Source: Thermoanaerobaculia bacterium (lineage in GTDB: Bacteria; Acidobacteriota; Thermoanaerobaculia; Multivoradales; Multivoraceae). From it: a stretch of 64,000 nucleotides of DNA. The DNA is taken from assembly GCA_022822365.1 (NCBI GenBank), contig JAJEBV010000008.1, forward strand, positions 169,524 through 233,523, given 5' to 3'. How positions within the stretch are numbered: position 1 is the stretch's first letter; every line of letters starts with the position of its first letter. The translations under genes and the position numbers were made by a program. This document shows positions 24,831 through 44,382 of this stretch, piece after piece. The notes beneath the pieces were generated by a model, which saw nothing but the letters and a program-made list of their open reading frames with translations, was not told the origin of the DNA and did no database searches.

Positions 24831-24839
24831 TCTCTTCAC

Positions 24840-25349: not shown

Positions 25350-25837
25350 GACTTCATTCTCAGCCTGCGGAGGGCGTCCATGTCGATGGCTGAACGGGAA
25401 GCTCGTTCCGTCTTGGCCGTGGGTGCCGTCTTCGGCGGCGCGTCGACAGATAGGTGCGCCGAGCGCTTGGCCGCGCTGGACACACTGTTGTCGAGCGCTC
25501 CGGGCAAAGGCACATGAAGTACCCACGCGGGCGTGGCACTCCCGCCGCCGGGCACAGGGTTGAGATTCTCCTTGACGGCGAGCGCCGCATCCGCAGTGAC
25601 GACTCTAATCGTCAGATGCAGCCCGACGTCGCAAAGAACCAAGCCGTCCGACTCCAGGTGTCCGCCCGCGATGAGGGCGGGGCCCAGACCCTCTAGCGCT
25701 GTCAGCTCGCGCTCTACGCTTCCGGCCGCAACGTTGGGGCTCCGCTCAAGCGTCGTAGCGATGAGCGTCGTGACCACGTTCCACGCTTCGGCGGCGCTTC
25801 GAACGGGGGAAGCGGCGATTGTCCTTTGTCGCTCCAT
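25346..25837 (-). CDS. small protein (163 aa), candidate HORMA-domain partner (by size and context only)
   Basis: ATG at 25837 (MERQRTIAAS...) lies 1 nt after the Trip13-like stop. Its stop overlaps the next start. Confidence 0.45.
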   Translation of the reverse strand: MERQRTIAASPVRSAAEAWNVVTTLIATTLERSPNVAAGSVERELTALEGLGPALIAGGHLESDGLVLCDVGLHLTIRVVTADAALAVKENLNPVPGGGSATPAWVLHVPLPGALDNSVSSAAKRSAHLSVDAPPKTAPTAKTERASRSAIDMDALRRLRMKS

Positions 25838-25838
25838 T

Positions 25839-26759
25839 TCAGCCCTCCGAACCTCCCTGACTGATACCGCCGTCCTCCATGACCCGCGAGGCCGCCGCGA
25901 GCAGGTCGTCGATCGTCGTACTTCCCGGGTCGAGCACCGTCTCGTCCCGGCCGAGCATCGCCTCCAGAATCGTCTTCCGGACCCGCCGGCCGTCCGCTCC
26001 CGCCAAGCGTCCCGCGACCTCTTCGAGCTGCTCGTCGCAAGCAAGTTCGCCGAGACACGCGTAAGCCGGCGCCATCGACCGAAGAGCGGACCTCAGGATC
26101 GCGACGATTCCCGCAGAATCCGGCACCGGGACGTGAATTTGCACGTCCACCCGCGACAAGAAGGCCTCGTCCAGGACGCCGACGAAGTTGCTCGTTGCCA
26201 CGAAGACCAGATTGGGGAACGCCGTCGTATTCGCGTCGAGCGCCGCCAACACGGCGTCCGTCGCTCGGTGCACGTCTGCCGGATTCGCCGCCAGCGACGC
26301 CTCGCTCCTCGCGACGGCCATCGACTCGATCTCGTCAAGGAGAACGACCGTAGGCACACCGTCGTCGGCAAGGCTCGGCACGTACTCCGCGAGCAACTGC
26401 GTTACAGCGCTCTGGCTCTCCCCATGCTCGGCGCTCATGAGACCGTGGGGATTGACCTCGACCAGCCGCGCTTGACGCTTCGGGGTGATCTTCGCCAGTT
26501 CATGGGCCAGACCACGTGCCAATGTCGTCTTACCTGTTCCCGGGGGGCCGTGTAGCAGGACGAGCCCATGCAGCGCCGTCGTCTCGAAGGGCAGTTCGCG
26601 ACGTAGGCGGAGATTCAACGCCGTGGCTCGGAGCAGACGGTCCTTCACCGAAGCATCAACTACAATCGAGTCCCACAGGCCCGCGTAGGCTGGATCCGGC
26701 ATCTCGCGAACAGCGCGCACGGACTCGGCCGCTTGACTGGGTGCGTTTTCGCTTCGCAT
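25839..26759 (-). CDS. Trip13/Pch2-like AAA+ ATPase
   Basis: ATG at 26759 (MRSENAPS...). Matches Trip13 blocks: LWDSIVVDASVKDRLL, LLHGPPGTGKTTLARGLA, EVNPHGLMSAEHGESQSAV, VLLDEIESMAVAR, NLVFVATSNFVGVLDEAFLSRVD. Confidence 0.85.
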   Translation of the reverse strand: MRSENAPSQAAESVRAVREMPDPAYAGLWDSIVVDASVKDRLLRATALNLRLRRELPFETTALHGLVLLHGPPGTGKTTLARGLAHELAKITPKRQARLVEVNPHGLMSAEHGESQSAVTQLLAEYVPSLADDGVPTVVLLDEIESMAVARSEASLAANPADVHRATDAVLAALDANTTAFPNLVFVATSNFVGVLDEAFLSRVDVQIHVPVPDSAGIVAILRSALRSMAPAYACLGELACDEQLEEVAGRLAGADGRRVRKTILEAMLGRDETVLDPGSTTIDDLLAAASRVMEDGGISQGGSEG

Positions 26760-26831
26760 GACTGCAACTCTACTTCGCAACAGGCGCGACCGCAACCCTC
26801 GAATCCGGCGACTCGAACATTCCCGTGCGGC

Positions 26832-27263
26832 ATGACCATGGTCGATCCCGGTTCCCCTAAGCCAACCGCGGCCCGGCCCTCGGCGAGACCCGCTCCCAAC
26901 CGCCGACGAGATCGCCCTCAGGTGGGCAGCGTTCTCCGCCGAGCCCGCCTGCACCACGACCTCTCGCTACGCGAGGTGGAACGCCGCATCGGCCGGTCCA
27001 ACGCGTATTTGTCCCAGGTGGAGCGCGGCCTGATCAAGCAGCCCGACCCGATCGTTCTCCTGGAACTGGCCGAACTCTACGGCCTGAACTTCGAGACCCT
27101 CGCGGCCTGGGCGAACTGGGTTTCCGCCGACCCGAACCCTTCGGGCGCGCAACCGCGTGACTCAACCGCCGTTCTCGTCCGGCAGGTCATGGAACTCGAC
27201 GCCGCCGAAAGGGCGACGGTTCTCCGCTTCGTCGACTCCATCCTGCGCAAGCGGCGGACGTAG
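26832..27263 (+). CDS. XRE-family helix-turn-helix transcriptional regulator
   Basis: ATG at 26832 (MTMVDPGS...). HTH LSLREVERRIGRSNAYLSQVERG. Divergent from the Trip13-like operon with a 72-bp intergenic region. Confidence 0.7.
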   Translation: MTMVDPGSPKPTAARPSARPAPNRRRDRPQVGSVLRRARLHHDLSLREVERRIGRSNAYLSQVERGLIKQPDPIVLLELAELYGLNFETLAAWANWVSADPNPSGAQPRDSTAVLVRQVMELDAAERATVLRFVDSILRKRRT

Positions 27264-27400
27264 GCACCCCTTCCCTCATGCCTGCACGCGCCAGACCGCT
27301 CCAAGGTCTGCACTCGCAACGCTGCTAGCCGCGCGCCCTCTCCCTCTAGCTTGACCGCGGCCCCCACGCTCGCACCTGTCCAGACACGATCCCCTCCGGT

Positions 27401-28246
27401 TCAACCTCGCTCTGCGGCCTCGTACACCGGCTTCCTCAACTTGAAGAACCACTCCGGCACCATCGGGCTAAGCCGCCGATGTTCGAAGAGGCGGGCCTGC
27501 ACGAGCCGGACGTCGCAAAGTGTCTGACTACCAGACTGCGCCCCAGCCCGTGACAGGAAGCGATGCAGCTTCTCCATGCGGATCCTTGCCGCAGATTGAG
27601 CAGTAACCGCCAATACCACCCACGCGACAAGCCTGAGACACGCCGCCACCAAGAGAACCACGTCCAGCAGTGAAGCCTCTGCAAGCACCGCCCCCAGAAG
27701 GACCGTCACCACCGACGCACCTACCAACGACTTGACGACCCAGATCCACTCCCTGCGTAATCGCTCCTCCCAGCGACAGCTAGCCCTCTGGCAGTGCAAC
27801 TGCGCCGCCACCGGCTCCGCGGGAATGGCTTCCGCTCGATACCAGTCAACCAGATCCTCCGGCGAGTCCCTTCGCGCGCTCCCTTTTCTCGCCAGCTCCT
27901 TCACTCTGTCATCCGTGGGCTGCTCCACACCGCTGTGAGCCGACCAAGGTAGGTCAAGGACGAAACAGTCAAACGCCTCCTGGATCGTCGCAGCTTCCTC
28001 CTTCATCCGGTCCCCCCACCGAGCCAGAAGCGGCTGGTCCACGAACCAAAGCAAGACAACGATGACGGTCGCTGCGTGACTGTCCGACCCCGCCTCCCTG
28101 GTCAAGCCCCAGAGCGCTACAACCGCAACGGCCACCACGCCCCCGAGCCGCACGCCCTCTACCTTCTTGACCTGCCGGTACAGCCAACGCAGCGCCGCCA
28201 GCCTTTCCAGTGACCGCTGGCTGTTCTGCCGCTCCCGAATGCTCAC
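27401..28246 (-). CDS. predicted multi-pass membrane protein (candidate effector)
   Basis: 281 aa, GTG start. Hydrophobic helices (GVVAVAVVALWGL, ATVIVVLLWFV, LVGASVVTVLLGAVLAEASLLDVVLLVAACLRLVAWVVLAV). No enzymatic motif recognised. Confidence 0.5.
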   Translation of the reverse strand: MSIRERQNSQRSLERLAALRWLYRQVKKVEGVRLGGVVAVAVVALWGLTREAGSDSHAATVIVVLLWFVDQPLLARWGDRMKEEAATIQEAFDCFVLDLPWSAHSGVEQPTDDRVKELARKGSARRDSPEDLVDWYRAEAIPAEPVAAQLHCQRASCRWEERLRREWIWVVKSLVGASVVTVLLGAVLAEASLLDVVLLVAACLRLVAWVVLAVTAQSAARIRMEKLHRFLSRAGAQSGSQTLCDVRLVQARLFEHRRLSPMVPEWFFKLRKPVYEAAERG

Positions 28247-29780: not shown

Positions 29781-30236
29781 ATGATCCACTTCACCATCAA
29801 CGGACAGGAGTTCGAGTCTCCGCAGAAACGCGTCTCCGTCGAGTGGCTCCTGAAGTTGATCGGCTGGAGCCCGAAGGACGCCCAGCTCGTGCGTGAGGTC
29901 ACGGGCGAGACGTGGTCCGACCCGTCCGCTGAGGTCGAGTTGCGCGAGGGGGACAAGTTCGAGGCCAAGCCGCGTCGGGGCCCGCTGCCTCCGGAGTCAA
30001 AGATCCACTACAAGGTGAACGGAGAGCCGCAGGTCACAACGAAGACGCCGATGATCCTCGAGGAAATCCTGCGCCGCGCGGGCGCCGACGCCGCCATCGA
30101 CCTCAACCAACTGGGGAGCTACTACCTCGACAACGTGGGTACGGGCGCCAGGTACGAGAACCTCGACGACGAAGTGCCGATCGTCGACGGCGACGAATTC
30201 GTGGCCCTCTACGCCGGACCGACGCCCGTCGCCTGA
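29781..30236 (+). CDS. multiubiquitin-like protein (two tandem beta-grasp/Ubl repeats)
   Basis: 151 aa. Two ~70-aa repeats each start with IH(F/Y)x(I/V)NG and end with (D/E)GDxF (IHFTINGQEF...EGDKFE; IHYKVNGEPQ...DGDEFVALYAG). First gene of an E2/E1/JAB operon. Confidence 0.6.
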   Translation: MIHFTINGQEFESPQKRVSVEWLLKLIGWSPKDAQLVREVTGETWSDPSAEVELREGDKFEAKPRRGPLPPESKIHYKVNGEPQVTTKTPMILEEILRRAGADAAIDLNQLGSYYLDNVGTGARYENLDDEVPIVDGDEFVALYAGPTPVA

Positions 30237-30240
30237 CGCA

Positions 30241-30621
30241 GTGCTCGAGACCATCGCCCGAGAGTTGCGGGAACTCGATGTCGAGGCCCGCGTCGTGCAT
30301 TCGTGGAACGGAATGGGGGGCGGCGGCGTCGTTTTCCCGCTCCGTGCGCCAAGCGGCCGCTTCAAGGGGAAGACACTGCAGCTTGGCCTGAGCTTTCAGG
30401 AGGATGCCTACCCTGAGTACCCGCCGCACTTCGTCCACTTTCGGCAAGCGGAGATCGAGGGCACGCACTTCACGATGCACTCGAAGCACGAGTTCGAAGG
30501 CGCCGAATGGTGGGCCTTCAGCTTCCCTCCGAGCGACTTCTGGGACCGTCTGGCGCCATCGGAGAAGAACATGCGGACCTACGTCCGGCGCCATCTCTAT
30601 CGCGTCCTGGAGCAATTGTGA
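30241..30621 (+). CDS. E2/UEV-like protein (UBC fold without a catalytic Cys)
   Basis: 126 aa, GTG start 5 nt after the previous stop. GKTLQLGLSFQEDAYPEYPPHFVHF mirrors the E2 core (FPxDYPFKPPKVxF), but the protein contains no cysteine. Confidence 0.5.
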   Translation: MLETIARELRELDVEARVVHSWNGMGGGGVVFPLRAPSGRFKGKTLQLGLSFQEDAYPEYPPHFVHFRQAEIEGTHFTMHSKHEFEGAEWWAFSFPPSDFWDRLAPSEKNMRTYVRRHLYRVLEQL

Positions 30622-32075
30622 CCTTCGAGGCGGCGTTCGTCGAGTCCACTCACGATGCAGCTTGCCGCCACCTGCTGGCGCATCTGCGCTCGGGCAGACG
30701 GCAGGAAGATCTCTGCTTCGCGCTGTGGCGGCCAAGTACCGGCGCCAGTCGGACGACCGCCCTGATTTCGGAGCTCGTCTTGCCGGAGGAAGGCGAGCGC
30801 ACCCTGCACGGCGGCGCGAGCTTCCAGCCGAACTTCCTGTCACGCGCCCTTCGCCTCGCCTGCGACCAGAACGCAGGTCTGGCCTTCCTGCACAGCCATC
30901 CGGTACCCGGCTGGCAGGGCATGAGTAGTGCGGATGTGAAGGCCGAACGGGACCGCATCGGCGGGCCGGCCCGAGCCACTGGTCTTCCGCTCGTAGGCCT
31001 CACGCTCGGAACGGACGAATCGTGGAGCGCCCGTTTCTGGAACTGGGAAGGCGGCGAGCTCGAGCGAACGTGGTGCCCGAAGGTGAGGGTCATCGGTCGT
31101 CGCCTGCGTCTGACCTGGAACGACGAACTGGTGCCGCCGCCCCGGCGGCGAGCGGTCCTCCGGCGCACGACAGACACTTGGGGCTGCGCGCGCCAATCAG
31201 ACCTGGCTCGGCTGCGGATAGGAGTCGTGGGTCTCGGGAGCGTCGGGTGCCTCGTTGCGGAGACACTCGCCCGCATCGGCGTCGAGAACATCGTTCTCGT
31301 GGACGCGGACCAAGTGAAGCGCCACAACCTGGACCGTCTCCTGTACGCTGGCGAGGACGACATCGGCCGCCTCAAAGTCGAACTCGCAGCCGAGAATCTG
31401 CGCCGGTCGGCGACGGCCGCGAACTTCACCGTCGAGTCCCACGTCGGCTGGCTCCAGCAGAGCGACTGCTATCGCGCCGCGCTGGACTGCGACGTCCTGT
31501 TCTCCTGTGTGGACCGACCTCTTCCAAAGGACCTTGTGAACCACATCGCCTACGCCCACTGCGTCCCCGTCGTGTTCGGCGGCGTCTTCGTCGACACGAA
31601 GCGGGACAGCACACTCGGCCAAGCGACCTGGAGCGTGGTCCGTGCCGGGCCCGAGCGCCGCTGCCTGCGATGCGACGGGCAGTACACGACCTCGGACGTC
31701 GCCATGGAGCGCGACGGCTCCCTGGACGACCCGAACTACATCGCCAGACTCACCGGCGGCAGACCTACGAACCAGAACGTGTTCCCGTTCAGCGCCAACC
31801 TCGCCAGTCTCATGACGCTCGAGATGATTCGAATGGTCGTGGGCGACACATGGTGGCCCCAGAATGCCGGCAAGCTGGACTACAGCTTCGTGCCGAACGT
31901 GCTTCGCACGGAAGACAGCCGCTGCCGCGAGTACTGTGAGGTGGCGAACCGGACGGCGCTGGGAGATCACATCGCCTATCCGTTCCTCGAAGCGGCGGCG
32001 CCCTCCGCCAACCTCGGGCGGATGGCTCGACTGCGAAGCTGGCTTCGGAAACTGGTAGGCGGGAGGGCCCCATGA
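30618..32075 (+). CDS. JAB/JAMM deubiquitinase-like domain fused to an E1-like (ThiF/MoeB) adenylyltransferase
   Basis: GTG start overlapping the E2-like stop (GTGA). JAMM motif LAFLHSHPVPGWQGMSSAD (HxHx7Sx2D). E1 Rossmann IGVVGLGSVGCLVAETLARIGV...VDADQVKRHNLDRLL. Cys-rich region CLRCDG. Confidence 0.8.
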   Translation: MTFEAAFVESTHDAACRHLLAHLRSGRRQEDLCFALWRPSTGASRTTALISELVLPEEGERTLHGGASFQPNFLSRALRLACDQNAGLAFLHSHPVPGWQGMSSADVKAERDRIGGPARATGLPLVGLTLGTDESWSARFWNWEGGELERTWCPKVRVIGRRLRLTWNDELVPPPRRRAVLRRTTDTWGCARQSDLARLRIGVVGLGSVGCLVAETLARIGVENIVLVDADQVKRHNLDRLLYAGEDDIGRLKVELAAENLRRSATAANFTVESHVGWLQQSDCYRAALDCDVLFSCVDRPLPKDLVNHIAYAHCVPVVFGGVFVDTKRDSTLGQATWSVVRAGPERRCLRCDGQYTTSDVAMERDGSLDDPNYIARLTGGRPTNQNVFPFSANLASLMTLEMIRMVVGDTWWPQNAGKLDYSFVPNVLRTEDSRCREYCEVANRTALGDHIAYPFLEAAAPSANLGRMARLRSWLRKLVGGRAP

Positions 32076-33340
32076 GCGCCATCACGAGTCTCGCTCTGAC
32101 GGACGTGCGCTGCTTCGAGGGTACTCAGCGTGTCGGACTGCCCCGCATCGCGGTGGTGGTGGGAGAGAACAGCGCAGGGAAGTCGACCTTCCTGGGCTGC
32201 CTTCGCGGCATGGCCAAACTGGCGAGTCTCGACGACCTGGACGACGAGAACCACTTCGATCAGCCGCCGTTCAACATGGGGCCGTTCAGCACGATCGCCC
32301 GCTCCGGCGCGGTAACCTTCGCGCTGGAAGCGACATTCGAGGGCCACAGCTACGAACGCGTGCGCGTCGTCTACGACGAAGGTCCCGACGGCGAACCCCG
32401 CGAGCGGGAGCTGGAATTCGTGCTCAGTACGAAGGGGCCCGACGCACTTGCCTTCGGCATCACGCGGATCGACCCGTCAGACGATGAACACAGGGAGACG
32501 TGGCGAGTCGCCGGACCGGGTTTCGAGTTCGACTTCGAACAGTCGTCGGTTTCCTACCGGCAGTTCAGCACTTGGCTCTCGCGCTCCGTCCGTCGGGGCA
32601 ACCTCCCGCACGACGGCGATCCGACCTTGAGGCGAAAGCGAACCGGCGACGTGACGCCGGAAGCGGATCGGGCGTTCACCCGCTTCGTGAACTTCTTCCG
32701 GGAAAGCCCTCGCGTTCCGCCGCCCGACCAGAAGCTCCTGGTTGTCGCCAACAACCCGGTCGGTTGGCCGCGCGACCGCTCGTTCGCCACAAACCCGTTC
32801 GGCCGGGCGATGGACGAGCCGAGGCTCTCCGAGATTCGGAAACTGGGTAGTGAACTCGGCCTCTTCGGCGACTTGGAGATTCGGCGCGGACCCGCTGGCG
32901 AGTACGAGGTGTGGGCCGACGCCTCCGGCGAGAGCCGCAACCTCGTCGACGTCGGCTTCGGCATTCAGAGCGCGCTGCCAATGCTCCATGCCATCGTTTC
33001 TGCGACGAAGGGGGCCACGCTCCTCCTGCAACAGCCCGAGGCTCATCTGCACCCAAGAACGCAGGCTGCGCTGGTGCGCGTGATCGTGTCGCGCGGTAGT
33101 CGGCTCCTGGTCGAGACGCATAGCGACCACGTTCCGGACTGGTTCCGTATCGCCGCGATGTCGGGGCAGGTGGATCCGCAAGACGTGGGGATCGCCTACT
33201 TCCACCGCAGTGACAACGGCGCCTCCACGACCCTGCACGACATTCGGCTTGACGATCAAGCGAATCTGGACGATCCACCGCGCGGTTTCCGGGACTTCTT
33301 CGTCGACGAGACCGAGCGACTTCTCGGCTTCCGCCGGTAG
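32072..33340 (+). CDS. ABC-type (AAA_15/AAA_21, OLD/SMC-like) ATPase
   Basis: ATG overlapping the previous stop (ATGA). Walker A GENSAGKST, Walker B/D-loop LLLQQPEAHLHP. Confidence 0.75.
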   Translation: MSAITSLALTDVRCFEGTQRVGLPRIAVVVGENSAGKSTFLGCLRGMAKLASLDDLDDENHFDQPPFNMGPFSTIARSGAVTFALEATFEGHSYERVRVVYDEGPDGEPRERELEFVLSTKGPDALAFGITRIDPSDDEHRETWRVAGPGFEFDFEQSSVSYRQFSTWLSRSVRRGNLPHDGDPTLRRKRTGDVTPEADRAFTRFVNFFRESPRVPPPDQKLLVVANNPVGWPRDRSFATNPFGRAMDEPRLSEIRKLGSELGLFGDLEIRRGPAGEYEVWADASGESRNLVDVGFGIQSALPMLHAIVSATKGATLLLQQPEAHLHPRTQAALVRVIVSRGSRLLVETHSDHVPDWFRIAAMSGQVDPQDVGIAYFHRSDNGASTTLHDIRLDDQANLDDPPRGFRDFFVDETERLLGFRR

Positions 33341-33349
33341 GGCTGGGAC

Positions 33350-33844
33350 GTGTGTACTCGGGTAGTGCTGGACGCAAGTGCGTTCGACGTCGTCAACGAG
33401 GAATCGCCGGCGTCGGCCGGCGTGCAGCTCCGACATTGGATAGCCGAAGGGCATGGGCGGGTTGCGTACTCCACCTACGATCGTTGCGGGAAGCAACTCA
33501 AGTGGGACGACAAGGTCTGGGCACTCGTTCGCCGCTACAGCCAGAGCGGCCTGGCGAATCGAGTAGCTGACCAAGATGTTCAACGGGAAGAAGAACGGCT
33601 GCGACCCGTCGTGACACGCTCCGGGGAGAACGACAGGCAAATGCTCGCCCTCGCGGCCGCCTCTGATGCGAGGGTGATGGTCGTCAAAGATGGGAACCTG
33701 ACGAAGGACTTTGAGGACGTGGCGATCCTGCCGAAGGTGCCGGGCTATCGGCGTCGGGCCTTCCCGAAGGAGCTTCCGAGCCCGGCACGCAACGACTTCC
33801 TCCACAGGCGTCGCTGCTCACGGCGGCTGTCCTCACGTTCCTGA
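33350..33844 (+). CDS. small protein with a PIN-like signature (tentative)
   Basis: GTG start 10 nt after the ATPase stop. The N-terminal VVLDASAF and the later SGENDRQMLALAAASDARVMVVKDG resemble PIN acidic-residue blocks. Weak call. Confidence 0.35.
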   Translation: MCTRVVLDASAFDVVNEESPASAGVQLRHWIAEGHGRVAYSTYDRCGKQLKWDDKVWALVRRYSQSGLANRVADQDVQREEERLRPVVTRSGENDRQMLALAAASDARVMVVKDGNLTKDFEDVAILPKVPGYRRRAFPKELPSPARNDFLHRRRCSRRLSSRS

Positions 33845-33888
33845 GGCGACGGTGGACGGATCGACCAGCGTCCGGGAGTGCCACTACG

Positions 33889-33923
33889 CTTGAAAATCCA
33901 GCAGTCACCGCCGAGATTTCAAG
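33889..33923. promoter_or_regulatory. inverted repeat CTTGAAAATCC-N13-GAGATTTCAAG upstream of the giant helicase gene
   Basis: The half-site matches the 11-mer CTTGAAATCTC found in the 12.2-kb direct-repeat cluster. Located about 80 bp upstream of the 34004 start. Confidence 0.55.
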
Positions 33924-34003
33924 CGCGATGACCCGCGCCTCGGCGTCGCTTAGAACGCACGCCTCAAGGCTCAGAGCCCACAAGCGTTAGCCTTGCCGGC
34001 TCC

Positions 34004-37000
34004 ATGGCCCTGAACCCGGTCGTCTTCACGGAGAAGGTCCTCCAGAGCTTTCTCCGCTACCAGTTGCGGGCCTATCCGTTCGCGGATCCGCGCCTGCACG
34101 GGCAGATGCGGGAACTGCTTTCGCTCGACGAAGCGCGGCAGTCGCCGCTGCTGCAGGGACCGTTCGTCAGCCTCTCGCGGCCCTTCCGCGGCGGCGCGGC
34201 TGTGGCGGATCTGGCGGATGAGGGCCTGCTCCACCCTCACCTGGAGCAACGGATCCCGAACGACATCAAGGAGCTCTACCGGCACCAGGAGAAGGCGATC
34301 CGCGCGATCGTCGGGGGGCGCTCGACGCTCGTTTCGACCGGCACCGGCTCCGGCAAGACGGAGTGCTTCCTCTACCCGATCGTCAGTCGCTGCCTGCGGC
34401 TGCGGGACGAGGGTGCGGCGGCCGGCATCAGCGCCGTGATCGTCTATCCGATGAACGCGCTGGCCGAGGATCAGTTGATGCGGCTGCGCTCGCTGCTGGC
34501 GGGCACGGGCGTTTCGTTCGGGATGTACGTCGGCAAGACGCCGGAGAGAGAAGGCGACGTGGTCGGCGTCAGGCTTCCTCCGGGATCTTCCCAGGCGGAC
34601 TACGAGGCGCAGCTAGAAGCGACGAGGAAGGCCAAGAGCGGCGAGAGCGTGTTCCCGGCCGAGGAGGCCTGCTCGCGGGAGGCGATGCGTTCGGCCGGCG
34701 AGCAACCGCGCATCCTGCTCACGAACGTGAAGCAACTGGAACTGCTTCTCACCCGCCAGCGGGACGCCGAGCTGTTCCACGGCGCCCGGCTCGACTACCT
34801 CGTGTTCGACGAGGCTCACACGTTCACCGGAGCGATGGGCGCCGAGACCGCGTGCCTCGTCCGCCGTTTACGGGCCTTCTGCGGGCGACAGGCCGCGGAC
34901 ACGGTCTGCGTCGCCACCTCGGCGACGATCGTCGACCGCGAGCGGCCGGAGGCGGCTCGCGCCTTCGCGTCACGGTTCTTCGGCGTGCCGGAGGAGTCCG
35001 TCGAGACGGTCGCGGAGGACTACGAGGAAGAGGTCTGGAGCGACGAGAGATGGCTGCCAGCGGCAGCGCCGCACGGAGACACCGCCGAGATCCTGGCTGA
35101 CTGCGTGGCGGCGGTCGAGGATGACGTGGAAGGGCCGGGAGACGCTGTCCGCCGCTCTTACCGGGCGCTTGCCGGCCGGGATCTGGACGGTGACAGTGAG
35201 CCCTGGCCCGAAGCGCTCTACGGAGCCCTGGCGCGGAGCGAGATCGTCTATCGCCTGAACGAGGCGCTACACGAGCCGCGGCCGCTCCACGAACTGCCGC
35301 CGAAGCTCGCGGAAGCCATCGGCCGGGGGATCACTGAAGCCGAGATCCTGGCCTGGCTGACCCTGGCCGCCGCGGCTCGAAGGGATGGCCGGCCTCTACT
35401 GCGGCCGGTGGTCCACGGCTTCGTGCGCGGGATTCCCGGCGCGGTCGTCTCCTTTCCGGGCGAGACGGACCAGCCTCGGCTCTGGCTGGCCGCGGAGGAC
35501 GAGATCGAGCACGGCGGGACGGCGCCGGCCGAGGGGACCGAACCGTCAGGCGAAGCGCGGTCGGCGCGTCTGCCCGTGCTCACCTGCACGACCTGCGGCC
35601 AGCACTACTATGAGGCCCATCTCGAGGACTTCTCGTTCACCGGCAAACGCCCGGGTGGCGGCGAGCCGCATGGGGACGGCGTCGTCTGGCGAAAGCTCGA
35701 CGAGGCCCGGGAGGGCAAGCGAGTGCTCCTGGTGGATCGCCTGATCGGCGGCGACGAGCACGACGCAGAGGACGAAGGCGGCCCGGCCCAGGAACGACGC
35801 AACGGCAACAGTGAGGCCGCGAGCGTCCTCGAACGGCGAACCGCTCCGGTTCACCTCTGCCGGTACTGCGGCGCGGCGCATGAACGACCGGGCGGGAACT
35901 GCCTCGCCTGCGGCGCGCCCGGCCCGAGAATCCGCCTTCACGCCGTCCGCCAGAAGAAGGACAGGCCCGGCGTCCTGACGAGCTGCCTCTCGTGCAACGC
36001 GCTGGGCGGCCGGGGCGGAGGCGGCCACTACCGCGAACCGGCGCGGCCCGTCCGCGCCAGCAACGCCGCCGACGTGCACGTTCTGGCTCAGGACATGGTC
36101 CAACAATCGGAGCGGAGGCGGCTGCTCGTGTTCTGCGACAACCGGCAAGACGCTGCGTTCCAGGCCGGCTGGATGAAGGACCACGCCCGCCGGTTCCGGC
36201 TGCGGTCGTTGATGGCCGACGGGCTCAAGGATGGGCACAGGTCGGTGGGCGACCTGACGTGGTTCCTGGAAGACGCGCTGGAGGAGGACGAGGCGCTCTC
36301 TCGCGCGTTGATCCCGGAGGTCTGGGTCGTGGCCCGCAAGGAGGCTGTCGGCCAACGCCACCGCGAGGAACGGCGGAAGTTCCTGCGCATGCAGGTGCTG
36401 CGCGAGATCTCGGAGTCCGCCCGGCAACCCCTGGGGCTCGAACCCTGGGGCCGGATGAAGGTCGACTACGCCGGTCTGGACGCCTCGCTGCCGTGGATCC
36501 AGGATCAGGCGAACCGGCTCGGCCTGCCGCCGGAATCGATGCGCGAAGGGGTCGCCGCAGCACTCGACTACGTTAGGCGGCAGAAGGTCCTCCACGACGC
36601 GGAGTACAAGACGTTCACCAAGAACTGGCTCGCCGGCGACCTGGAGATCCAGCAGGGCTATCTCCGGCGGACTGGCGGGCCAAAGGGCGTCAAGTTGAAA
36701 CGCGGCCCCGGCGACGATCGCGGCCGCGTCCTGCAATGGTTGAGTGAGGGCGGCCAGACCACGATGAGGCAGATGGCCGTGAAGTGGGGCGCCGAGCCGG
36801 AACAGGCGGAGGAGCTGCTGCGGAGCCTGTTCGAGATGTTGGTAGAGCGCGGCCTGCTGCAATCGGTGCAACTCCTGGGCGCACACAGAAACCCGATGCC
36901 GAACGCCAGCGGCGTGTACCAGGTCGACGCCGACCGAATCGAGCTGTCGCCCCACCGCGGCGTCTACCGCTGCCGCAGTTGCCGCGCCCGCACGGTCCGC

Positions 37001-40000
37001 CGGACGCCGCACGACCGCTGCCCGGCCTGGCGGTGCAACGGCACGCTGGAGTGGCTGCGCGAAGACCCGGACGACTACGACCTGCAGCTCCTGGACGGCG
37101 GCTACTCCATGCTGCGCCCGGAGGAGCACACCGCGATGGTTCCGAACCGGGAGCGGGAACGGCTGGAGAACCTGTTCAAGAGCCAGAGCGACGCGGTGAA
37201 CTGCTTCGTCTGCACCGCCACGCTTGAGCTCGGGGTCGACATCGGCGCTCTCGACGCCGTGCTGATGCGCAACGTACCGCCCCTGCCCGCCAACTACTGG
37301 CAGCGAGCCGGCCGCGCCGGCCGACGCCATCGGATGGCCGTTGATCTGACGTACTGCCGGCCCGTGTCTCACGACCGCGCCTACTTCGCCCAGCCCGAGA
37401 AGCTGCTGGCCGGGCGGGTCGACCCGCCGGCCTTCAACCTGAGCAACGACGTGATGGTCCGCAAGCACGTCAACGCTTCCGTTCTGACCGGGTTGCAGCG
37501 GCTCAGTCGGGAGAACGGTGCCGCGCCGGGCAGACTTCCCGCGGCTGAACGGGAGGAGATCGGAGCGGCGCTCGAACGCTGCCTGCCGCGCCGCGTGTCG
37601 GCCTGGCTGTTCGAGGGCGACACCGTGCGTACCGCGCCGTTCGATTTCGGGCCCCTCGCCGAGGTGATCCGGCGGCACCGGCGTACGCTTCTCGCCGAAG
37701 CCGAAGACGCCTTCGCCCAGGGTTGGCCGGCAGCGGACGCCGAGGCGGCTACGCGCGACGTGCTGGGCCGCTGCGTCGACTCCTTCACCGCCGGCCTGAA
37801 AGAAGCCGAACGCTCTCTGCGGCGCCGGCTGGAGTGGGCGCTCGCCCAGATGGAGAGGCTGAACGCGACCCGCCGACCGCGCGGCACGCTCGACCCGGAG
37901 GACAAGGCTCTGTTCCGCCGTTGCGAACAGCTCGTAGAGCGGCTCAAGGGACTTGCGCGCACGAACCGCCGCGACGCCCAGGGGCACTACGACGCGAACA
38001 CGTTCAACGTGTTGGCGGCGCAGGGCTTTCTTCCCGGCTACGGGCTCGAGACCGGGTCCGTCCAGGCGATCGCGGAAGTGCCGGTCTGGCACTCCGGGGC
38101 GCTCGCCTTCAACCTGCCCCGGCCGACCGGCATCGCGCTGCGCGAGTACGTCCCGGGCAACCTGATCTACGCCAACGGGCACCGTTTCGTGGCCAGGAGG
38201 TTCCTGCGCGGTACAGGCGAAGACCGGGAGGAGATGCCCGCGTTCGAGGTCTCGACCGAGCACCAGGCGGTGCGGCAGTGCGACGCCGGCGCTCCGGCAT
38301 CGACGATCGGCGGCGGAACGCTCAGCACGCTCGCGGTCTGCGACGTGGACCTGGCCCATCGGTCCCAGATCTCGGACGACGAGGACTACCGCTTTCAGAT
38401 GGCGGTTGCCGTCCACGGCGTCGAACGCGACGGGCACCGCGGCGGCCGCGCCTTCCAATGGGGCGAGCAGGATGCGTTGCTACGTCACGGCGTCGAACTG
38501 CGACTGGTCAATGTGGGTTCGTCGTCCGCGATCGGCGACGGTTCCGGGCTCGGCTACCCGGTATGTACGGTCTGCGGCCAGAGTGTCTCGCCGCTGTCCT
38601 CCGAGCGCCAGCAGACCGAGTTCACCAAGAGCCACCTGGAGCGGTGCGGGCGCCCGGTGGATCGGATCGGCTTCCACGCTGACGTCACTGCCGATGTCCT
38701 CTCCCTGCCGAGCCTGCCGGAGCCAGCGACCGCCTACAGCGTGCTGGAGGCACTGCGGTTCGGTGCCGCCGGGGTGCTGGACATGCACCTGGACGATTTA
38801 CAGGTCCTGGTCGTGGGCCAGGTCGACCGTCCCGAAGTAAACGCGCTGCTGTGGGACCCGATGCCCGGCGGTTCGGGCCTGCTCGATCAACTCGTCGAGC
38901 GCTTCGACGAAGTCGCCGAGGCCGCGGAAGCCACTGTCGGCGGTTGCGCGTCCGGCTGCGACCACTCGTGCATCGACTGCCTCCAGACCTTCCGAAACGG
39001 CTACTACCACAGCCATCTCAGCCGAAAGACAGCGCTGGAGTGCCTGCGCCAATGGGGGCGCGAACTGGCGCTTTCGCACCCCATTCCCGCTGCCACGCCA
39101 GCCGGTGGCGAGCCCACCGCGCAGCCCGTGAACGAGGCCGAACGCCGCCTCAGGCACCTGCTGACAGCAGCGGGCTTCGCCGAAGGCGTGCGGGGAGAAC
39201 AGATCAACCTCGGCCCGGGCCTGGGCACGACGACGCCCGACGTCATCTACCCGGGCCATGGCGGCATGCCCGATGTCTGCGTCTACCTCGACGGCCTGAG
39301 CGAGCACCTGCACGGGAATCCCCGGACCGCCGAGCGGGACCGGGAGATCCGGTACTGGTTGCGACAGCAGGGCTACGAGGTGGTCGAGATCACCGTGACG
39401 GACCTTGATGACGCCGGAGCGATGGCACGCCACTTCGTGCGGCTCGCGATGTACCTGGGCGCCGAGGAGGTGCGGAAGGCTGTCAGCGTCGGCGGTGCGT
39501 GGTTTGAAGAGGCGGCACCGGCAGGGCCAGCCGCTGCGGCTCCGCCGCCGGAGGAAACTCAGCCAAGCCGGGCCGCCGTACTCCGATTCGTCGAGCCGAC
39601 CCCGGAGAACCGCTACCGAAGCTGCGTGCCGTTTCTGGAAGACCTCGAAGCCGCAGCGGGCAACTTCGGCGACCCTCACGGCGCCTTAGGCGAGATTGGG
39701 GATTCCGGAACCCCTTGGATCGAGGTCGACTTCGGGCGCCAGCCAACGCCCGACATGTTCGCGGCCAGAGTGGCTGGAAGGTCGATGGAGCCACGTATCC
39801 CAGACGGTTCCGTCTGCCTGTTCCGCAGAGGCGTCGCCGGGAGCCGAACTGGCCGCATCGTGTTGGCCCGGCTACGGGACGCCGTCGACCCGGAAACCGG
39901 CGAGCGCTTCACCGTGAAGCGCTATCGAAGCGAGAAGCGGACGGCAGCCGATGGGCCTTGGCGCCATGTCCGGATCACGTTAGAACCGCTGAACCCCGAG

Positions 40001-40117
40001 TTCGCACCCATCGAGCTAGTCGCAGAAAACGACCAAGGTTCGGATGCGATCAACATCCTGGCCGAGTTCGTCGACGTGCTTCACACGGACACTCGGCGCG
40101 AGTCGATGAGGAGCTGA
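34004..40117 (+). CDS. giant multidomain protein: DEAH-box helicase (DrmA-like), Zn ribbons, DUF1998 (DrmB-like), DUF559-like endonuclease and a C-terminal LexA-type S24 peptidase
   Basis: 2037 aa. Walker A TGTGSGKTE (about 34340), DEAH LVFDEAHTF (about 34805), motif VI QRAGRAGRR (about 37300). CxxC pairs CTTCGQ and CRYCGA...CLACGA. DUF1998-like Cys cluster CTVCGQ...CASGCDHSCIDCLQTF (about 38540-39010). DUF559-like AERRLRHLL...VCVYLDGLSEH...YEVVEI (about 39138-39415). S24 domain RVAGRSMEP...GRIVLARL...FTVKRY...LEPLNPEFAPIELV (about 39700-40114) preceded by AAAG (about 39650). Confidence 0.85.
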   Translation: MALNPVVFTEKVLQSFLRYQLRAYPFADPRLHGQMRELLSLDEARQSPLLQGPFVSLSRPFRGGAAVADLADEGLLHPHLEQRIPNDIKELYRHQEKAIRAIVGGRSTLVSTGTGSGKTECFLYPIVSRCLRLRDEGAAAGISAVIVYPMNALAEDQLMRLRSLLAGTGVSFGMYVGKTPEREGDVVGVRLPPGSSQADYEAQLEATRKAKSGESVFPAEEACSREAMRSAGEQPRILLTNVKQLELLLTRQRDAELFHGARLDYLVFDEAHTFTGAMGAETACLVRRLRAFCGRQAADTVCVATSATIVDRERPEAARAFASRFFGVPEESVETVAEDYEEEVWSDERWLPAAAPHGDTAEILADCVAAVEDDVEGPGDAVRRSYRALAGRDLDGDSEPWPEALYGALARSEIVYRLNEALHEPRPLHELPPKLAEAIGRGITEAEILAWLTLAAAARRDGRPLLRPVVHGFVRGIPGAVVSFPGETDQPRLWLAAEDEIEHGGTAPAEGTEPSGEARSARLPVLTCTTCGQHYYEAHLEDFSFTGKRPGGGEPHGDGVVWRKLDEAREGKRVLLVDRLIGGDEHDAEDEGGPAQERRNGNSEAASVLERRTAPVHLCRYCGAAHERPGGNCLACGAPGPRIRLHAVRQKKDRPGVLTSCLSCNALGGRGGGGHYREPARPVRASNAADVHVLAQDMVQQSERRRLLVFCDNRQDAAFQAGWMKDHARRFRLRSLMADGLKDGHRSVGDLTWFLEDALEEDEALSRALIPEVWVVARKEAVGQRHREERRKFLRMQVLREISESARQPLGLEPWGRMKVDYAGLDASLPWIQDQANRLGLPPESMREGVAAALDYVRRQKVLHDAEYKTFTKNWLAGDLEIQQGYLRRTGGPKGVKLKRGPGDDRGRVLQWLSEGGQTTMRQMAVKWGAEPEQAEELLRSLFEMLVERGLLQSVQLLGAHRNPMPNASGVYQVDADRIELSPHRGVYRCRSCRARTVRRTPHDRCPAWRCNGTLEWLREDPDDYDLQLLDGGYSMLRPEEHTAMVPNRERERLENLFKSQSDAVNCFVCTATLELGVDIGALDAVLMRNVPPLPANYWQRAGRAGRRHRMAVDLTYCRPVSHDRAYFAQPEKLLAGRVDPPAFNLSNDVMVRKHVNASVLTGLQRLSRENGAAPGRLPAAEREEIGAALERCLPRRVSAWLFEGDTVRTAPFDFGPLAEVIRRHRRTLLAEAEDAFAQGWPAADAEAATRDVLGRCVDSFTAGLKEAERSLRRRLEWALAQMERLNATRRPRGTLDPEDKALFRRCEQLVERLKGLARTNRRDAQGHYDANTFNVLAAQGFLPGYGLETGSVQAIAEVPVWHSGALAFNLPRPTGIALREYVPGNLIYANGHRFVARRFLRGTGEDREEMPAFEVSTEHQAVRQCDAGAPASTIGGGTLSTLAVCDVDLAHRSQISDDEDYRFQMAVAVHGVERDGHRGGRAFQWGEQDALLRHGVELRLVNVGSSSAIGDGSGLGYPVCTVCGQSVSPLSSERQQTEFTKSHLERCGRPVDRIGFHADVTADVLSLPSLPEPATAYSVLEALRFGAAGVLDMHLDDLQVLVVGQVDRPEVNALLWDPMPGGSGLLDQLVERFDEVAEAAEATVGGCASGCDHSCIDCLQTFRNGYYHSHLSRKTALECLRQWGRELALSHPIPAATPAGGEPTAQPVNEAERRLRHLLTAAGFAEGVRGEQINLGPGLGTTTPDVIYPGHGGMPDVCVYLDGLSEHLHGNPRTAERDREIRYWLRQQGYEVVEITVTDLDDAGAMARHFVRLAMYLGAEEVRKAVSVGGAWFEEAAPAGPAAAAPPPEETQPSRAAVLRFVEPTPENRYRSCVPFLEDLEAAAGNFGDPHGALGEIGDSGTPWIEVDFGRQPTPDMFAARVAGRSMEPRIPDGSVCLFRRGVAGSRTGRIVLARLRDAVDPETGERFTVKRYRSEKRTAADGPWRHVRITLEPLNPEFAPIELVAENDQGSDAINILAEFVDVLHTDTRRESMRS

Positions 40118-40119
40118 GA

Positions 40120-41007
40120 ATGACCTCAGAGTTGGGAGAACTCGTAACGGCGGACCTGCGAAAGGCGTGGTCGCACGAAGCACACGACTTCACGCCCTGG
40201 CTCGCCGAGAACCTGGACCGCCTGTCGGCCGTGATCGGCCTTGATCTGGACCTTGAGGGATGCGAAGTCCAGGTGGGACCGTACCGTGCGGACATCGTGG
40301 CCAATGATCCATCGGATGGCACTCGGGTGCTCATCGAGAACCAACTCGAGGACGCGAACCTCCAGCATCTAGGCCAGGTCCTGGCCTATCTGGCCGGCTT
40401 GGAGGCGAAGGTGGTTGTCTGGATCGCCAAGGAGTTCGACCAACAGCACCGGTCAGCCATCCGGTGGCTGAACGACCACACCGATGATCCGTTCGCCTTC
40501 TTCGCAGTGCGCGTCCGTGTCGTCCAGATTGGGGAGTCACCACTAGCGCCTGTGTTCGAGGTGCTGGAACGCCCGAACGAGTGGGACCGGAGAGTGCACG
40601 ACGACGTCCGGACCGGGGAACTCAGCGAACTCGGCCAGTTCAGGCGTGACTTCTGGAACCACGTCGCCTCGAAGCACCCCACTGAGGTTCGACCGAACTA
40701 CGCCGCTAGTTCCGTTCGTCACGACGTTGAGGCAACCGACCTGGCGGTCACACAGTTCGTTGCTCGCCACGAAGTCGGCGTCTTCCTGGTCGGCAAGCGT
40801 GGGGAACGCGACAAGGAGGTACTAGCAAGAGTCAAGCCCTACCGAAAGGCCCTTCAGGAGAAGCTCGGCGCCAAGCCGACGGACAAGTGGGGAACGAGCG
40901 TTCTGGCGATGGACACGCGCGATCCAACTAACTGGGATCGAGCCGCAGAGTGGCTCCACGATCAGCGGAAGAAGTACGAGAAGGTGCTACGCGACGTCAG
41001 TGATTGA
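40120..41007 (+). CDS. PD-(D/E)xK nuclease-like protein (NucS/RecB-like fold)
   Basis: ATG 3 nt after the giant gene's stop. 295 aa. YRADIVANDPSDGTRVLIENQLE resembles a D...E-x-K/Q restriction-endonuclease-like core. Lower local GC. Confidence 0.5.
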   Translation: MTSELGELVTADLRKAWSHEAHDFTPWLAENLDRLSAVIGLDLDLEGCEVQVGPYRADIVANDPSDGTRVLIENQLEDANLQHLGQVLAYLAGLEAKVVVWIAKEFDQQHRSAIRWLNDHTDDPFAFFAVRVRVVQIGESPLAPVFEVLERPNEWDRRVHDDVRTGELSELGQFRRDFWNHVASKHPTEVRPNYAASSVRHDVEATDLAVTQFVARHEVGVFLVGKRGERDKEVLARVKPYRKALQEKLGAKPTDKWGTSVLAMDTRDPTNWDRAAEWLHDQRKKYEKVLRDVSD

Positions 41008-41639: not shown

Positions 41640-41718
41640 GCTCGGGCTCCTCAGGTGGGCAGACTCGTAGCCTACGCTCCGGCCCCCCGGTCGTCCAACT
41701 CCAGAGGCGACTGGTAAC

Positions 41719-44382
41719 TTGGCTCCTATGCCACCAAACCGACGCGCGTTCGCTGTGCTGAGCGGTCTCGCTCTGCTTCTCCTCTCAGCGGGCGCCACGG
41801 TCGCCCAGACACCGTCGAAGCCCAACATCATCGTCATCCTCGCCGACGACCTCGGCGTCGAGACCCTGGGCGTCTACGGCGGCACGTCCTACGAGACGCC
41901 GGAGCTCGACCGGGTCGCCGCGGAGGGGATGCGGTTCGAGAACGGGCACTCGCAGCCGCTGTGCACGCCGACCCGGGTCAAGCTGATGACGGGGCTGCAC
42001 AACCACCGGAACTACCGGGAGTTCATGGAACTTGATCCGGCCGACGTCACGTTCGCCCACGTGCTGGCGCAGGCCGGCTACCGGACGGTGATCTCGGGCA
42101 AGTGGCAGTTGACGAACAACCTCTACGTGGTCCACGAGGGGGCCTCGCCGCAGCAGGCGGGCTTCGACGAGCACCGGCTCTGGCAACTCCGGCGGGAGGG
42201 TCGCGGATCGCGCTACTGGGGACCGACCCTGGTCACGAACGACCGGAAGGAGACCTGGGGTGAAGACATCTTCGGGCCCGATCTGACGAACGACTTCGTG
42301 CTCGAGGCGATCGACGAACACGCTGCGGCGGATCCGGCGACCCGCAAGCCGCTCTTCGTCTACTACCCGATGGCGCTTCCCCACGATCCGTTCGTGACGA
42401 CGCCGCACCATCCGGACGCGGAGTCGAACCAGGAGCGGTTCGCGGCGATGGTGGCCTACATGGACCACCTGGTGGGGCGGGTGCGGGCGAAGCTCGTCGA
42501 GCACGAGCTGGACCGAGACACGCTGCTCCTGTTCATCGGCGACAACGGCACCTCGACCCGGATCACGTCGGTCCGCGACGGCCGGGAGGTCCCCGGAGGC
42601 AAGGGGCGGTCGCTCCAGACCGGCAGCCACGTGCCCTACCTCGCCTGGTGGCCGGGGACGATCCCCGGCGGCCAGGTGAACGAGACCCTGGTCGATGTCG
42701 GCGACGTGTTTCCAACCCTGGTCGAGGCGGCCGGCGCCGGCCTGCCTCCGGGCCTCGACCTGGACGGCGAGAGCCTGCTGCCGATGCTGAAGGGCGGTGC
42801 GCCGCTGGAACGGGACGCCCTGTTCATCCACTACGAGTCACGCTGGTACGCCGGCCCTCCGGCGCGCTATGCCTTCGACGAGCGCTTCAAGCGCTACGAC
42901 GACGGTCGGCTGTTCGACCTCCTCGCCGACCCGAACGAGCAATCGCCGCTCGGCGCCGCGAGCCTCGCGCCGGAAGACGCCGCCCGCGTCGACGCGATCG
43001 ACGCCCTGCTCGCCTCCAAGCCCGGAGCGATCCGCACCGCCGGCGCCTGGAGGCCCCCGACACCCGCCGTCAACCGCTGGACGCCGCCCGCCCACCGGCC
43101 GAACATCCTCCTCTTCATCGCCGACGACATGACGTACAGCGACGCCGGCGCCCTGGGCAACCCCCAAGTCCACACCCCGAACCTCGACCGCCTGGCCGAG
43201 CAGGGAACGACCTTCACCCACATGTACACCGCCACCGCGATGTGCTCGCCCACCCGGCACATGCTCTACACCGGCCAGTACCCGGTGCGAAGCGGCGCCT
43301 ACCCGAACCACGCCAAGGCGAATCCCGGCACGAAGAGCGTCGTCCACTACCTGAGCGGCCTCGGCTACCGGGTCGGCCTGGCCGGCAAGTCCCACGTGGC
43401 GCCCGAGGAGGTCTACCCGTTCGAGAAGGTCGCGGGACGCGACCTCGACCCGGGCCGGATCGGCGAGTTCGTCGGCCGCGATCCGGAGCAGCCCTTCGCG
43501 CTGATCGTCGCCTCGACCGAGCCCCACCAGCCCTGGAGCAAGGGCGATCCGTCACGCTACGACGCGGCGTCGCTCAAGCTGCCGCCCTACTTCGTCGACA
43601 CGCCGGAGACGCGCGAGGCGTTGACCCGCTACTACGCCGAGATCACCTTCATGGACGGCCAACTCGGCCAAGTCCTCGACCTGCTCCGGGAGCACGCCGC
43701 GCACGAGAACACGCTGACCATGTTCTACAGCGAGCAGGGGATCAGCGGCCCCTTGGCCAAATGGACGCTGTACGAAGCGGGCATCCGCACCTCGCTCGTG
43801 GCCCGCTGGTCCCGCAGGATTCCGGCCGGGCGGACGTCAGCCGCGCTGCTCCAGATCAACGACCTTCTGCCGACCTGGATCGAGGCCGCCGGTGGCGCCG
43901 TGCCGCCCGAGATCGAGGGCGAGAGCATGCTCGACCTGCTGCTCGAGCCCGGCCCGAAGCACCGCGACGTCGTCTACGGCATTCAGACGACGACCGGCAT
44001 CATCGCGAACCTGGCGCCCTATCCGATCCGGTCGATCCGCGACGAGCGCTACAAGCTGATCTGGAACATCGCCCACGAGAACCGCTTCACGAACCTGGTC
44101 ACGCAGGAGAACCGCGACGGCTTCTACTTCTCGTGGCGCGACGCCGGGGAAACGGATCCGGCTGCCCAGGCGCTCTACGAGCGCTACCAGCATCGGCCGG
44201 AGTTCGAGTTCTTCGATCTGGAGGCGGATCCGCATGAGATGACGAACCTGGCGGACACACCGCAGCACCAGGAGCGGCTCGCTTCGCTGCACAAGCAGTT
44301 GCGCGCATGGATGGAAGATCAGGGCGATCTCGGGCTGGAAACCGAGATCGAAGCCCCGGAGCACCAGTCGCGGCCGCGCTAG
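41719..44382 (+). CDS. tandem-domain arylsulfatase (two complete sulfatase domains)
   Basis: 887 aa with a signal peptide. Domain 1 has PNIIVILADDLG and the formylglycine motif CTPTR. Domain 2 has PNILLFIADDMT and CSPTR. Confidence 0.85.
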   Translation: MAPMPPNRRAFAVLSGLALLLLSAGATVAQTPSKPNIIVILADDLGVETLGVYGGTSYETPELDRVAAEGMRFENGHSQPLCTPTRVKLMTGLHNHRNYREFMELDPADVTFAHVLAQAGYRTVISGKWQLTNNLYVVHEGASPQQAGFDEHRLWQLRREGRGSRYWGPTLVTNDRKETWGEDIFGPDLTNDFVLEAIDEHAAADPATRKPLFVYYPMALPHDPFVTTPHHPDAESNQERFAAMVAYMDHLVGRVRAKLVEHELDRDTLLLFIGDNGTSTRITSVRDGREVPGGKGRSLQTGSHVPYLAWWPGTIPGGQVNETLVDVGDVFPTLVEAAGAGLPPGLDLDGESLLPMLKGGAPLERDALFIHYESRWYAGPPARYAFDERFKRYDDGRLFDLLADPNEQSPLGAASLAPEDAARVDAIDALLASKPGAIRTAGAWRPPTPAVNRWTPPAHRPNILLFIADDMTYSDAGALGNPQVHTPNLDRLAEQGTTFTHMYTATAMCSPTRHMLYTGQYPVRSGAYPNHAKANPGTKSVVHYLSGLGYRVGLAGKSHVAPEEVYPFEKVAGRDLDPGRIGEFVGRDPEQPFALIVASTEPHQPWSKGDPSRYDAASLKLPPYFVDTPETREALTRYYAEITFMDGQLGQVLDLLREHAAHENTLTMFYSEQGISGPLAKWTLYEAGIRTSLVARWSRRIPAGRTSAALLQINDLLPTWIEAAGGAVPPEIEGESMLDLLLEPGPKHRDVVYGIQTTTGIIANLAPYPIRSIRDERYKLIWNIAHENRFTNLVTQENRDGFYFSWRDAGETDPAAQALYERYQHRPEFEFFDLEADPHEMTNLADTPQHQERLASLHKQLRAWMEDQGDLGLETEIEAPEHQSRPR

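Follow-up and report, generated by a model that had tools for sequence, protein, structure and literature searches.

A palindrome in an acidobacterial defence island is probably a stranded DUF4143-type operator and not the control element of the helicase gene behind it

The closest described counterparts of the repeats and the palindrome reported here are autoregulatory operators. As in such operators, the motif lies at −45 to −15 of the promoters of DUF4143 genes in Acidobacteriota, and in Proteobacteria it abuts the ATG, with its half-sites forming an inverted repeat of fixed spacing. The presumed binder, however, would be no classical small repressor but an AAA_14 ATPase with a predicted PD-(D/E)XK-type domain, this being the superfamily to which PMC3424549 assigns the DUF4143 domain; moreover, the half-sites are found as arrays of 4–7 direct repeats in Acidobacteriota and one Bacilli genome, and the palindrome considered here has no cognate gene downstream. 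Systems governed by the BrxR/CapW WYL-domain family (PMC9122601) or by RptR (PMC12255303) have in common with the present locus a cis element heading defence-island genes and the notion of one factor set over several systems. They differ in that no WYL-domain or RptR-like gene was identified beside either the palindrome or the array (in those ORFs of the island to which the Pfam scans were applied, no WYL domain came up), in that the motif tracks DUF4143 genes, also outside islands, as on rhizobial and roseobacter plasmids, and in that a linkage between palindrome and helicase is absent across genomes. Iterons, DnaA-box clusters and similar direct repeats bound by an oligomerising initiator-type ATPase resemble our arrays, which have 4–7 direct repeats of a 12-nt unit, about two helical turns apart, with a P-loop ATPase gene adjacent; our arrays, however, have neither an origin context nor a Rep gene, and they are chromosomal and fixed behind a housekeeping glycosyltransferase gene, with a promoter following. 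LexA/SOS boxes come to mind through the C-terminal S24 domain of the helicase, the palindrome being upstream of a gene that encodes such a peptidase domain, but its arms (CTTGAAA...TTTCAAG) match the DUF4143-associated motif instead, and neither a LexA-type gene nor an N-terminal LexA DNA-binding domain is involved.

The DNA analysed was a single stretch of 64,000 nucleotides from a member of the Thermoanaerobaculia, referred to below as the window. It is most closely related to Candidatus Multivorans and to further Thermoanaerobaculia, Acidobacteriota. Between a glycosyltransferase gene (10044–12233) and a sulfatase gene (ATG at 41728), about 29.5 kb of lower GC content (12200–41730) form a defence island. 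In related Thermoanaerobaculia the same two flanking genes enclose anything from 138 nt (locus L057) to tens of kilobases, and this great variety of contents within constant borders makes the locus a chromosomal defence hot spot. The features on which the following paragraphs draw are listed here by their coordinates in the window.

12232–12334, + strand: direct-repeat array, with exact GAAATCTCGGAG units at 12232, 12277, 12300 and 12323
12342–12358, + strand: inverted partial unit GAGACTTC (12342–12349), then a −10-like box, TAGAGT (12353–12358)
12366–13520, + strand: DUF4143 ATPase gene (Pfam AAA_14 and DUF4143; PADLOC PDC-S01)
13597–13881: DUF2442-like gene of 94 codons, situated after the DUF4143 gene and before DrmD and preceded by a separate TAGAAT box
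13946–17347: DrmD
up to 22683: DrmMI / type IIG enzyme
22800–23846: DUF3644 (PDC-S19)
23973–28246, − strand: type III CBASS
29781–32075: multiubiquitin/E1 pair
32072–33844: NsnB-like ATPase and a gene for a 164-aa protein
33884–33936, + strand: palindrome module of 53 nt
33887–33925, no strand: palindrome with perfect 9-nt outer arms and extended 18-nt arms
33888–33905, + strand: left arm, GCTTGAAAATCCAGCAGT, a weaker unit-like half-site (8/12)
33907–33924, − strand: right arm, reading GCTTGAAATCTCGGCGGT, an inverted array unit (11/12 against GAAATCTCGGAG)
33988–33993, + strand: −10-like box, TAGCCT, 10 nt before the helicase ATG, within a block common to all helicase orthologues
34004–40117, + strand: giant helicase gene (DEAD, Helicase_C, MZB/DUF1998, C-terminal Peptidase_S24; best PADLOC matches to DruE models)
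40114–41007: PDC-S11
41715–41730, + strand: sulfatase promoter-proximal block (TAACTT, 7 nt, ATG at 41728)

The stretch 13946–22683 encodes DrmD and DrmMI, components of class 1 DISARM, with genes for DrmA, DrmB and DrmC not adjacent, and its large methyltransferase also gave very strong type IIG restriction-modification matches. The DUF2442-like gene follows directly after the array in several relatives. In Candidatus Multivorans OZ253534.1, a duplicated 3′ end of the glycosyltransferase gene together with two array units (L012, 3938–4030) was found inside the island, between the helicase gene and a PDC-S11 homologue; the native junction (L011) is about 13 kb away, and the duplication is evidence that the array junction has taken part in recombination. 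The ends of Tn7-like or other transposons were considered for the 22-bp repeated units at the island edge and were rejected because the island ORFs scanned included no transposase or integrase and because even the empty locus still has the array.

The array starts at the very end of the glycosyltransferase gene, its first unit overlapping the stop codon, and keeps a period of 22–23 bp, with a degenerate unit in phase at 12255–12266. The −35 region of the DUF4143 promoter lies between the last full unit and the inverted partial one, and the TAGAGT box lies only 7 nt before the DUF4143 ATG (12366), suggesting that the transcript is leaderless; a factor bound at this −35 region would be expected to occlude RNA polymerase. 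The layout of inverted partial unit and −10 box is repeated in L005, L006, L009 and L056, and arrays in front of DUF4143 genes have a TANNNT box 6–9 nt before the start codon, with the last and the inverted units on either side of the −35 region. When one genome per species was scanned for two adjacent units, 54 loci were obtained, about 27 of them from Acidobacteriota. The acidobacterial loci have 2–7 units at a 22–23 bp period beginning at the glycosyltransferase stop, whatever gene follows: most often this is a DUF4143 gene (L004–L006, L024, L049–L051, L054), but it may be DrmD directly (L010, L019, L029, L041, L058), the DUF2442-like gene (L011, L028, L033, L038) or, where the island is all but empty, its sulfatase side (L013, L018, L053, L057), and in L009 and L052 a DUF4143 gene with an array of its own is found upstream of the glycosyltransferase gene. 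Judged by this comparison, the array at 12.2 kb is a real and conserved element. An exact look-up of the DUF4143 protein of the window found none on record, and a scan of viral contigs for relatives of it found none.

The palindrome, CGCTTGAAAATCC-N13-GAGATTTCAAGCG, is present as the initial annotation had described it, some 80 bp upstream of the start at 34004. Its end lies 78 nt before the helicase ATG and its centre about 98 nt upstream, and 62 nt separate the end (33925) from the TAGCCT box. The perfect outer arms are CGCTTGAAA (33887–33895) and TTTCAAGCG (33917–33925); between CTTGAAAATCC (33889–33899) and GAGATTTCAAG (33913–33923) there is a gap of 13 nt. The extended arms (33888–33905 and 33907–33924) form 13 Watson–Crick pairs and one G–T pair out of 18. 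The reverse complement of the right arm, CTTGAAATCTC, had been noted as identical to 12297–12307; this is exact, and the identity runs on to 13 nt (CTTGAAATCTCGG).

Motifs of the same kind were found in front of DUF4143 genes in other phyla, with a half-site of roughly TTG(A/C)AAAT(C/T)(C/T)CGG. In a Bacilli genome (L046), whose DUF4143 protein is 25% identical to ours, four TTCAAATCTCGGAG units recur every 22 bp, with TATAAT behind them. A gammaproteobacterial homologue (L070) is preceded by GTGAAAATTCGGA-N7-TCCGAATTTTCAC and then TTAGAAT, another homologue by GAATATTCGGA-N7-TCCGAGTGTTC, and one from Runella by CATTGAAAA...ATTTCAATG; the same half-site stands upstream of the DUF4143 gene of L074, and in six plasmid homologues from Alphaproteobacteria and Acidithiobacillus CCTTGCAAAT...ATTTGCAAGG abuts the ATG. 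From 18 half-sites of palindromes upstream of DUF4143 genes, none from Acidobacteriota, a matrix was built by hand alignment and run over the 128,000 positions of the window. Unit 3 of the array and the right arm of the palindrome took ranks 1 and 2, unit 1 and the left arm ranks 4 and 5, and not one of 500 column-permuted control matrices placed four of its top five at array units or palindrome arms. The geometry also agrees, the CGG ends facing inward across about 9 nt: CCAG-N9-CCGAG in the window, CGG-N9-CCG in L057 and L051, and TCGG-N9-CCGA in L070 and L074, so that the inner CGG–CCG spacing is 9 nt in all five, and within the array of L006 it is N8. A profile HMM trained on eight palindromes that precede proteobacterial and Thermus DUF4143 genes missed the palindrome when the window was searched, which places its similarity to the operators of other phyla at the level of the half-site only. 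The pattern CTTGMAA-N19–21-TTKCAAG matches the window and a Bosea plasmid (L079) only and, having been devised after the data were seen, was not counted as proof. On these cross-phylum comparisons, the word shared by palindrome and array is no coincidence, and the two belong to one motif family. In one respect the palindrome departs from the family: it does not lie immediately upstream of a DUF4143 gene start, since the helicase gene follows it in two cases (the window and L001) and the sulfatase gene in the other two (L051 and L057). With no DUF4143 gene directly downstream, it was classed as an orphan copy.

The DUF4143 gene is the one neighbour that the motif keeps from phylum to phylum, which makes autoregulation by the product of this gene the most economical reading. 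That one factor serves both the array and the palindrome, as first proposed, is therefore plausible, the DUF4143 protein being the simplest candidate. In PMC4406477, a Thermus DUF4143 gene annotated with helix-turn-helix (HTH) motifs is reported to be induced 6.6-fold in the presence of plasmid DNA. In our DUF4143 protein, an HTH-like stretch at about residues 200–235 gave sub-threshold matches to HTH_11 and FaeA (E ∼0.15); the structure model has a mean pLDDT of 60 and falls below 50 at residues 128–259, where the HTH is suspected, and sequence searches of the PDB with this protein returned P-loop matches only. Many Acidobacteriota have 2–4 perfect units with no DUF4143 gene beside them, and these would require either a DUF4143 gene at a distant site of the same genome or a different factor.

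The idea that all ATCTCGGAG arrays of the genome collection lie beside DUF4143 genes was considered and rejected, as outside Acidobacteriota only that of L046 does; for those of Alloprevotella, Psychrobacillus and others, no DUF4143 gene was found within 8 kb. Non-coding arrays of the same core, AAATCTCGGAG, with a period of 20–22 bp and different spacers, were seen in Bacteroidota, Bacillota and Pyrinomonadaceae, among them six in a single genome, that of Alloprevotella sp. oral taxon 473 (L007, L022, L023, L036, L045, L060), two in Psychrobacillus (L014, L026), and L039, L030, L032 and L044; none of these 8-kb loci showed a DUF4143 gene.

Three relatives (L057, L051 and L001) have a homologue of the palindrome. 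With the window this makes four copies, all from close relatives, and their conservation may thus reflect a short divergence time and not selection. In the empty island of L057 the glycosyltransferase stop is followed by two units, 50 nt, GCTTGAAGATGCGGCGGT-G-ACCGCCGAGATTTCAAGC, 24 nt, TAACTT, 7 nt and the sulfatase ATG. In L051 the order is glycosyltransferase, array, DUF4143, toxin gene, palindrome, sulfatase. In both, the sulfatase promoter-proximal block comes directly after the palindrome module, which lies 24–28 nt upstream of the sulfatase −10 box, and homology with the window at this point is restricted to the module itself (33884–33936). In L001 the palindrome precedes the helicase gene, and its left arm has changed to GCTCGAGAATCC with no compensating change. 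The right arm is the same in the window, L001 and L057 and carries one change in L051, decay being confined to the left arm; the better palindromes are the sulfatase-adjacent copies, with 15 Watson–Crick pairs and one G–T of 18 in L051 and 14 and two in L057, against 13 and one in the window and 11 and two in L001. Directly after the palindrome, L001 (9738–9760) and L051 (3405–3425) read ATGATG(A/G)CCCGC, and DUF4143 genes begin ATGATCGACC directly after their operators. The match of ATGATG(A/G)CC to these gene starts may point to the vestigial start of a lost DUF4143 gene in L001 and L051, in a similarity too short for proof. A metagenome scan with the right arm plus GATG gave three matches, all set aside as chance, each standing without a left arm and without related genes.

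Taken together, the palindrome is probably an orphan, partly decayed inverted-repeat operator of the DUF4143 type that is part of the glycosyltransferase–sulfatase hot spot of Candidatus Multivorans and relatives and was stranded by cassette insertions, and the helicase gene is probably not its target. In the minimal locus about 50 bp separate the GAAATCTCGGAG array from the palindrome, which the sulfatase promoter closely follows; the simplest history would be that array and palindrome were once neighbours in such an uninterrupted locus. Cassettes now amounting to 21.6 kb (DUF4143, DUF2442, DrmD/DrmMI, CBASS, E1/multiubiquitin and the NsnB-like pair) would have come in between array and palindrome, and a further 7.8 kb (helicase, PDC-S11 and a probable toxin–antitoxin pair) between palindrome and sulfatase; insertions on both sides would have left the palindrome 78 nt upstream of the helicase gene. 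The DUF4143 protein would repress its own gene by binding at the promoter, the −35 region of which would be covered by the last unit together with the inverted partial one. Through its intact right arm, the orphan palindrome may still bind the factor, and the helicase would be expressed from its own TAGCCT promoter, for which the palindrome would not be required.

The helicase itself is a protein of 2037 aa with no DruH-like partner adjacent. Its family gives more than 2,800 database matches at E ≤ 1e-20; the best 120 of these are 60–92% identical, come from at least two phyla by source names and nearly all carry the S24 domain, a fusion that is absent from the YprA-family survey of PMC12458937. 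In the block at 33978–34003, L001–L003 and L064–L069 have GGTAGCCTTGCC or GTTAGCCTTGCC 6–7 nt before the ATG. The TAGCCT box fits the TANNNT −10 box, leaving a leader that is very short or absent. Two further genes look leaderless, as only 7 nt separate the ATG from TAGAGT in the DUF4143 gene and from TAACTT in the sulfatase gene. Within the helicase coding sequence (36401–36420, + strand) there is a near-perfect array unit, CGCGAGATCTCGGAGTCCGC, scoring 17.2 bits, a score reached in 4% of random 64-kb sequences.

The initial annotation had gone further and proposed a working operator, at which one factor would co-regulate the DUF4143 ATPase and the helicase–S24 gene in an inducible defence circuit. 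The motif is indeed shared and specific, the module precedes the helicase in both the window and L001, and the right arm is unaltered in these two. However, when the orthologues with 86–92% identical proteins were collected (seven other distinct neighbourhoods comprising eleven loci, some of them near-identical), only one neighbourhood, that of L001, had the palindrome, with its left arm broken, and it was wholly absent from the other six (ten loci: L002, L003, L064–L066, L067/L068, L069). Upstream, all the orthologues agree over no more than some 26 nt in front of the ATG, a block that contains TAGCCT: homology with L069 ends at 33852 and starts again at 33978, and with L002, L003, L064 and L067 it begins at 33979–33984. 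The palindrome thus neither overlaps nor adjoins the predicted promoter, its centre being well upstream. In addition, it is exactly the helicase-adjacent copies in which the left arm has decayed, and the same module fronts the sulfatase gene in L051 and L057, a finding that does not fit with its being a regulatory element of the helicase. Of the original proposal, then, the common binder survives as plausible, whereas control of the helicase gene by the palindrome is unlikely on these alignments, and the complete circuit strikes us as improbable.

Another reading is that the palindrome works as a nucleic-acid hairpin, a stem-loop that terminates, attenuates or stabilises read-through RNA between cassettes. 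Folding is strong for the copies of L051 (−25.1 kcal/mol) and L057 (−21.4 kcal/mol), whose z-scores are close to −4.8, but those of the window and L001 fold weakly (z-scores −2.6 and −1.5). At arm position 8 pairing is kept as A–T in the window, G–T in L057 and G–C in L051, although symmetric changes would be predicted equally for a site bound by a dimer. No U tract follows the stem on either strand; the base of the stem is AT-rich and is followed by GCGATGAC, and a scan of 33300–34300 for intrinsic (Rho-independent) terminators returned none. The Rfam 15 covariance models gave no match at E up to 1 in 33600–34100 on either strand. A scan for sigma-70-type promoters, with −35 and −10 hexamers 16–18 nt apart, likewise returned no site; at the palindrome, TTGAAA, 17 nt and GAGATT fail, GAGATT not having the T at the first position of the TANNNT box. 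The array, too, speaks against the hairpin, since its copies of this half-site are direct repeats and unable to pair, and we consider a role of this kind distinctly improbable.

It might also be supposed that the palindrome is unselected intergenic DNA and that its likeness to an array unit is biologically meaningless. The recurrence of the 11-mer had been called unlikely by chance, a claim that holds for an AT-rich word specified beforehand: CTTGAAATCTC is exact at 12297–12307 (+) and 33913–33923 (−), with a one-mismatch copy at 12229, and these three matches at up to one mismatch compare with 0.43 expected in the window, three being reached in none of 100 shuffles, while for the 13-nt identity between the right arm and unit 3 of the 12.2-kb cluster 0.00 were expected. 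It does not hold once selection after looking is counted, as 14 of the 149 11-mers of the palindrome's intergenic region recur elsewhere in the window, and 99.95% of simulated intergenic regions share an 11-mer and 52% a 13-mer with the rest of it. With a matrix built from 81 acidobacterial units of other genomes, the right arm scored 12.6 bits (rank 6 of 128,000 positions) and the left arm 1.8 bits (rank 19), and a score of 12.6 bits arises in 27% of random 64-kb sequences. K-mer recurrence from this region being the rule, the window alone does not show the match to be meaningful, and the verdict therefore rests on the comparison with other genomes. There, the module is homologous in four genomes and stands beside the array in an empty locus, both arms are among the top five by the matrix from other phyla, as in none of its permuted controls, and the CGG-N9-CCG geometry agrees with that of L070 and L074. 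Against these, a meaningless resemblance is very improbable.

Least probable of all, in our view, is that the units and the palindrome are sites at which the DUF4143 ATPase, with its predicted PD-(D/E)XK nuclease-type domain, acts on DNA and promotes the gain, loss or shuffling of defence cassettes at this hot spot. Such a reading would fit three observations, namely that the array always bounds the variable region on its left, that the palindrome occupies an internal junction where the genes on either side change from genome to genome, and that the junction of glycosyltransferase end and array is duplicated inside the L012 island, but it is weakened by the finding of no further palindrome copies at the other cassette junctions of the window.

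For the helicase, the reading of the palindrome as a stranded DUF4143-type operator is deflationary: the palindrome would be an inherited piece of the insertion site and no evidence of a regulated helicase–S24 circuit. For the Thermoanaerobaculia, palindrome and array provide a sequence marker of the defence-island hot spot. The literature searched on DUF4143 contains no description of such repeats, and within that literature the cis-elements associated with DUF4143, as palindromes in Proteobacteria and as arrays of 22-bp period in Acidobacteriota and one Bacilli genome, make up a family not described before. The DUF4143 ATPases are a widespread family of unassigned function, listed by PADLOC as the candidate defence gene PDC-S01, and the half-site offers a testable handle on them: whether they bind their own promoters and whether they may be sensor–regulators.
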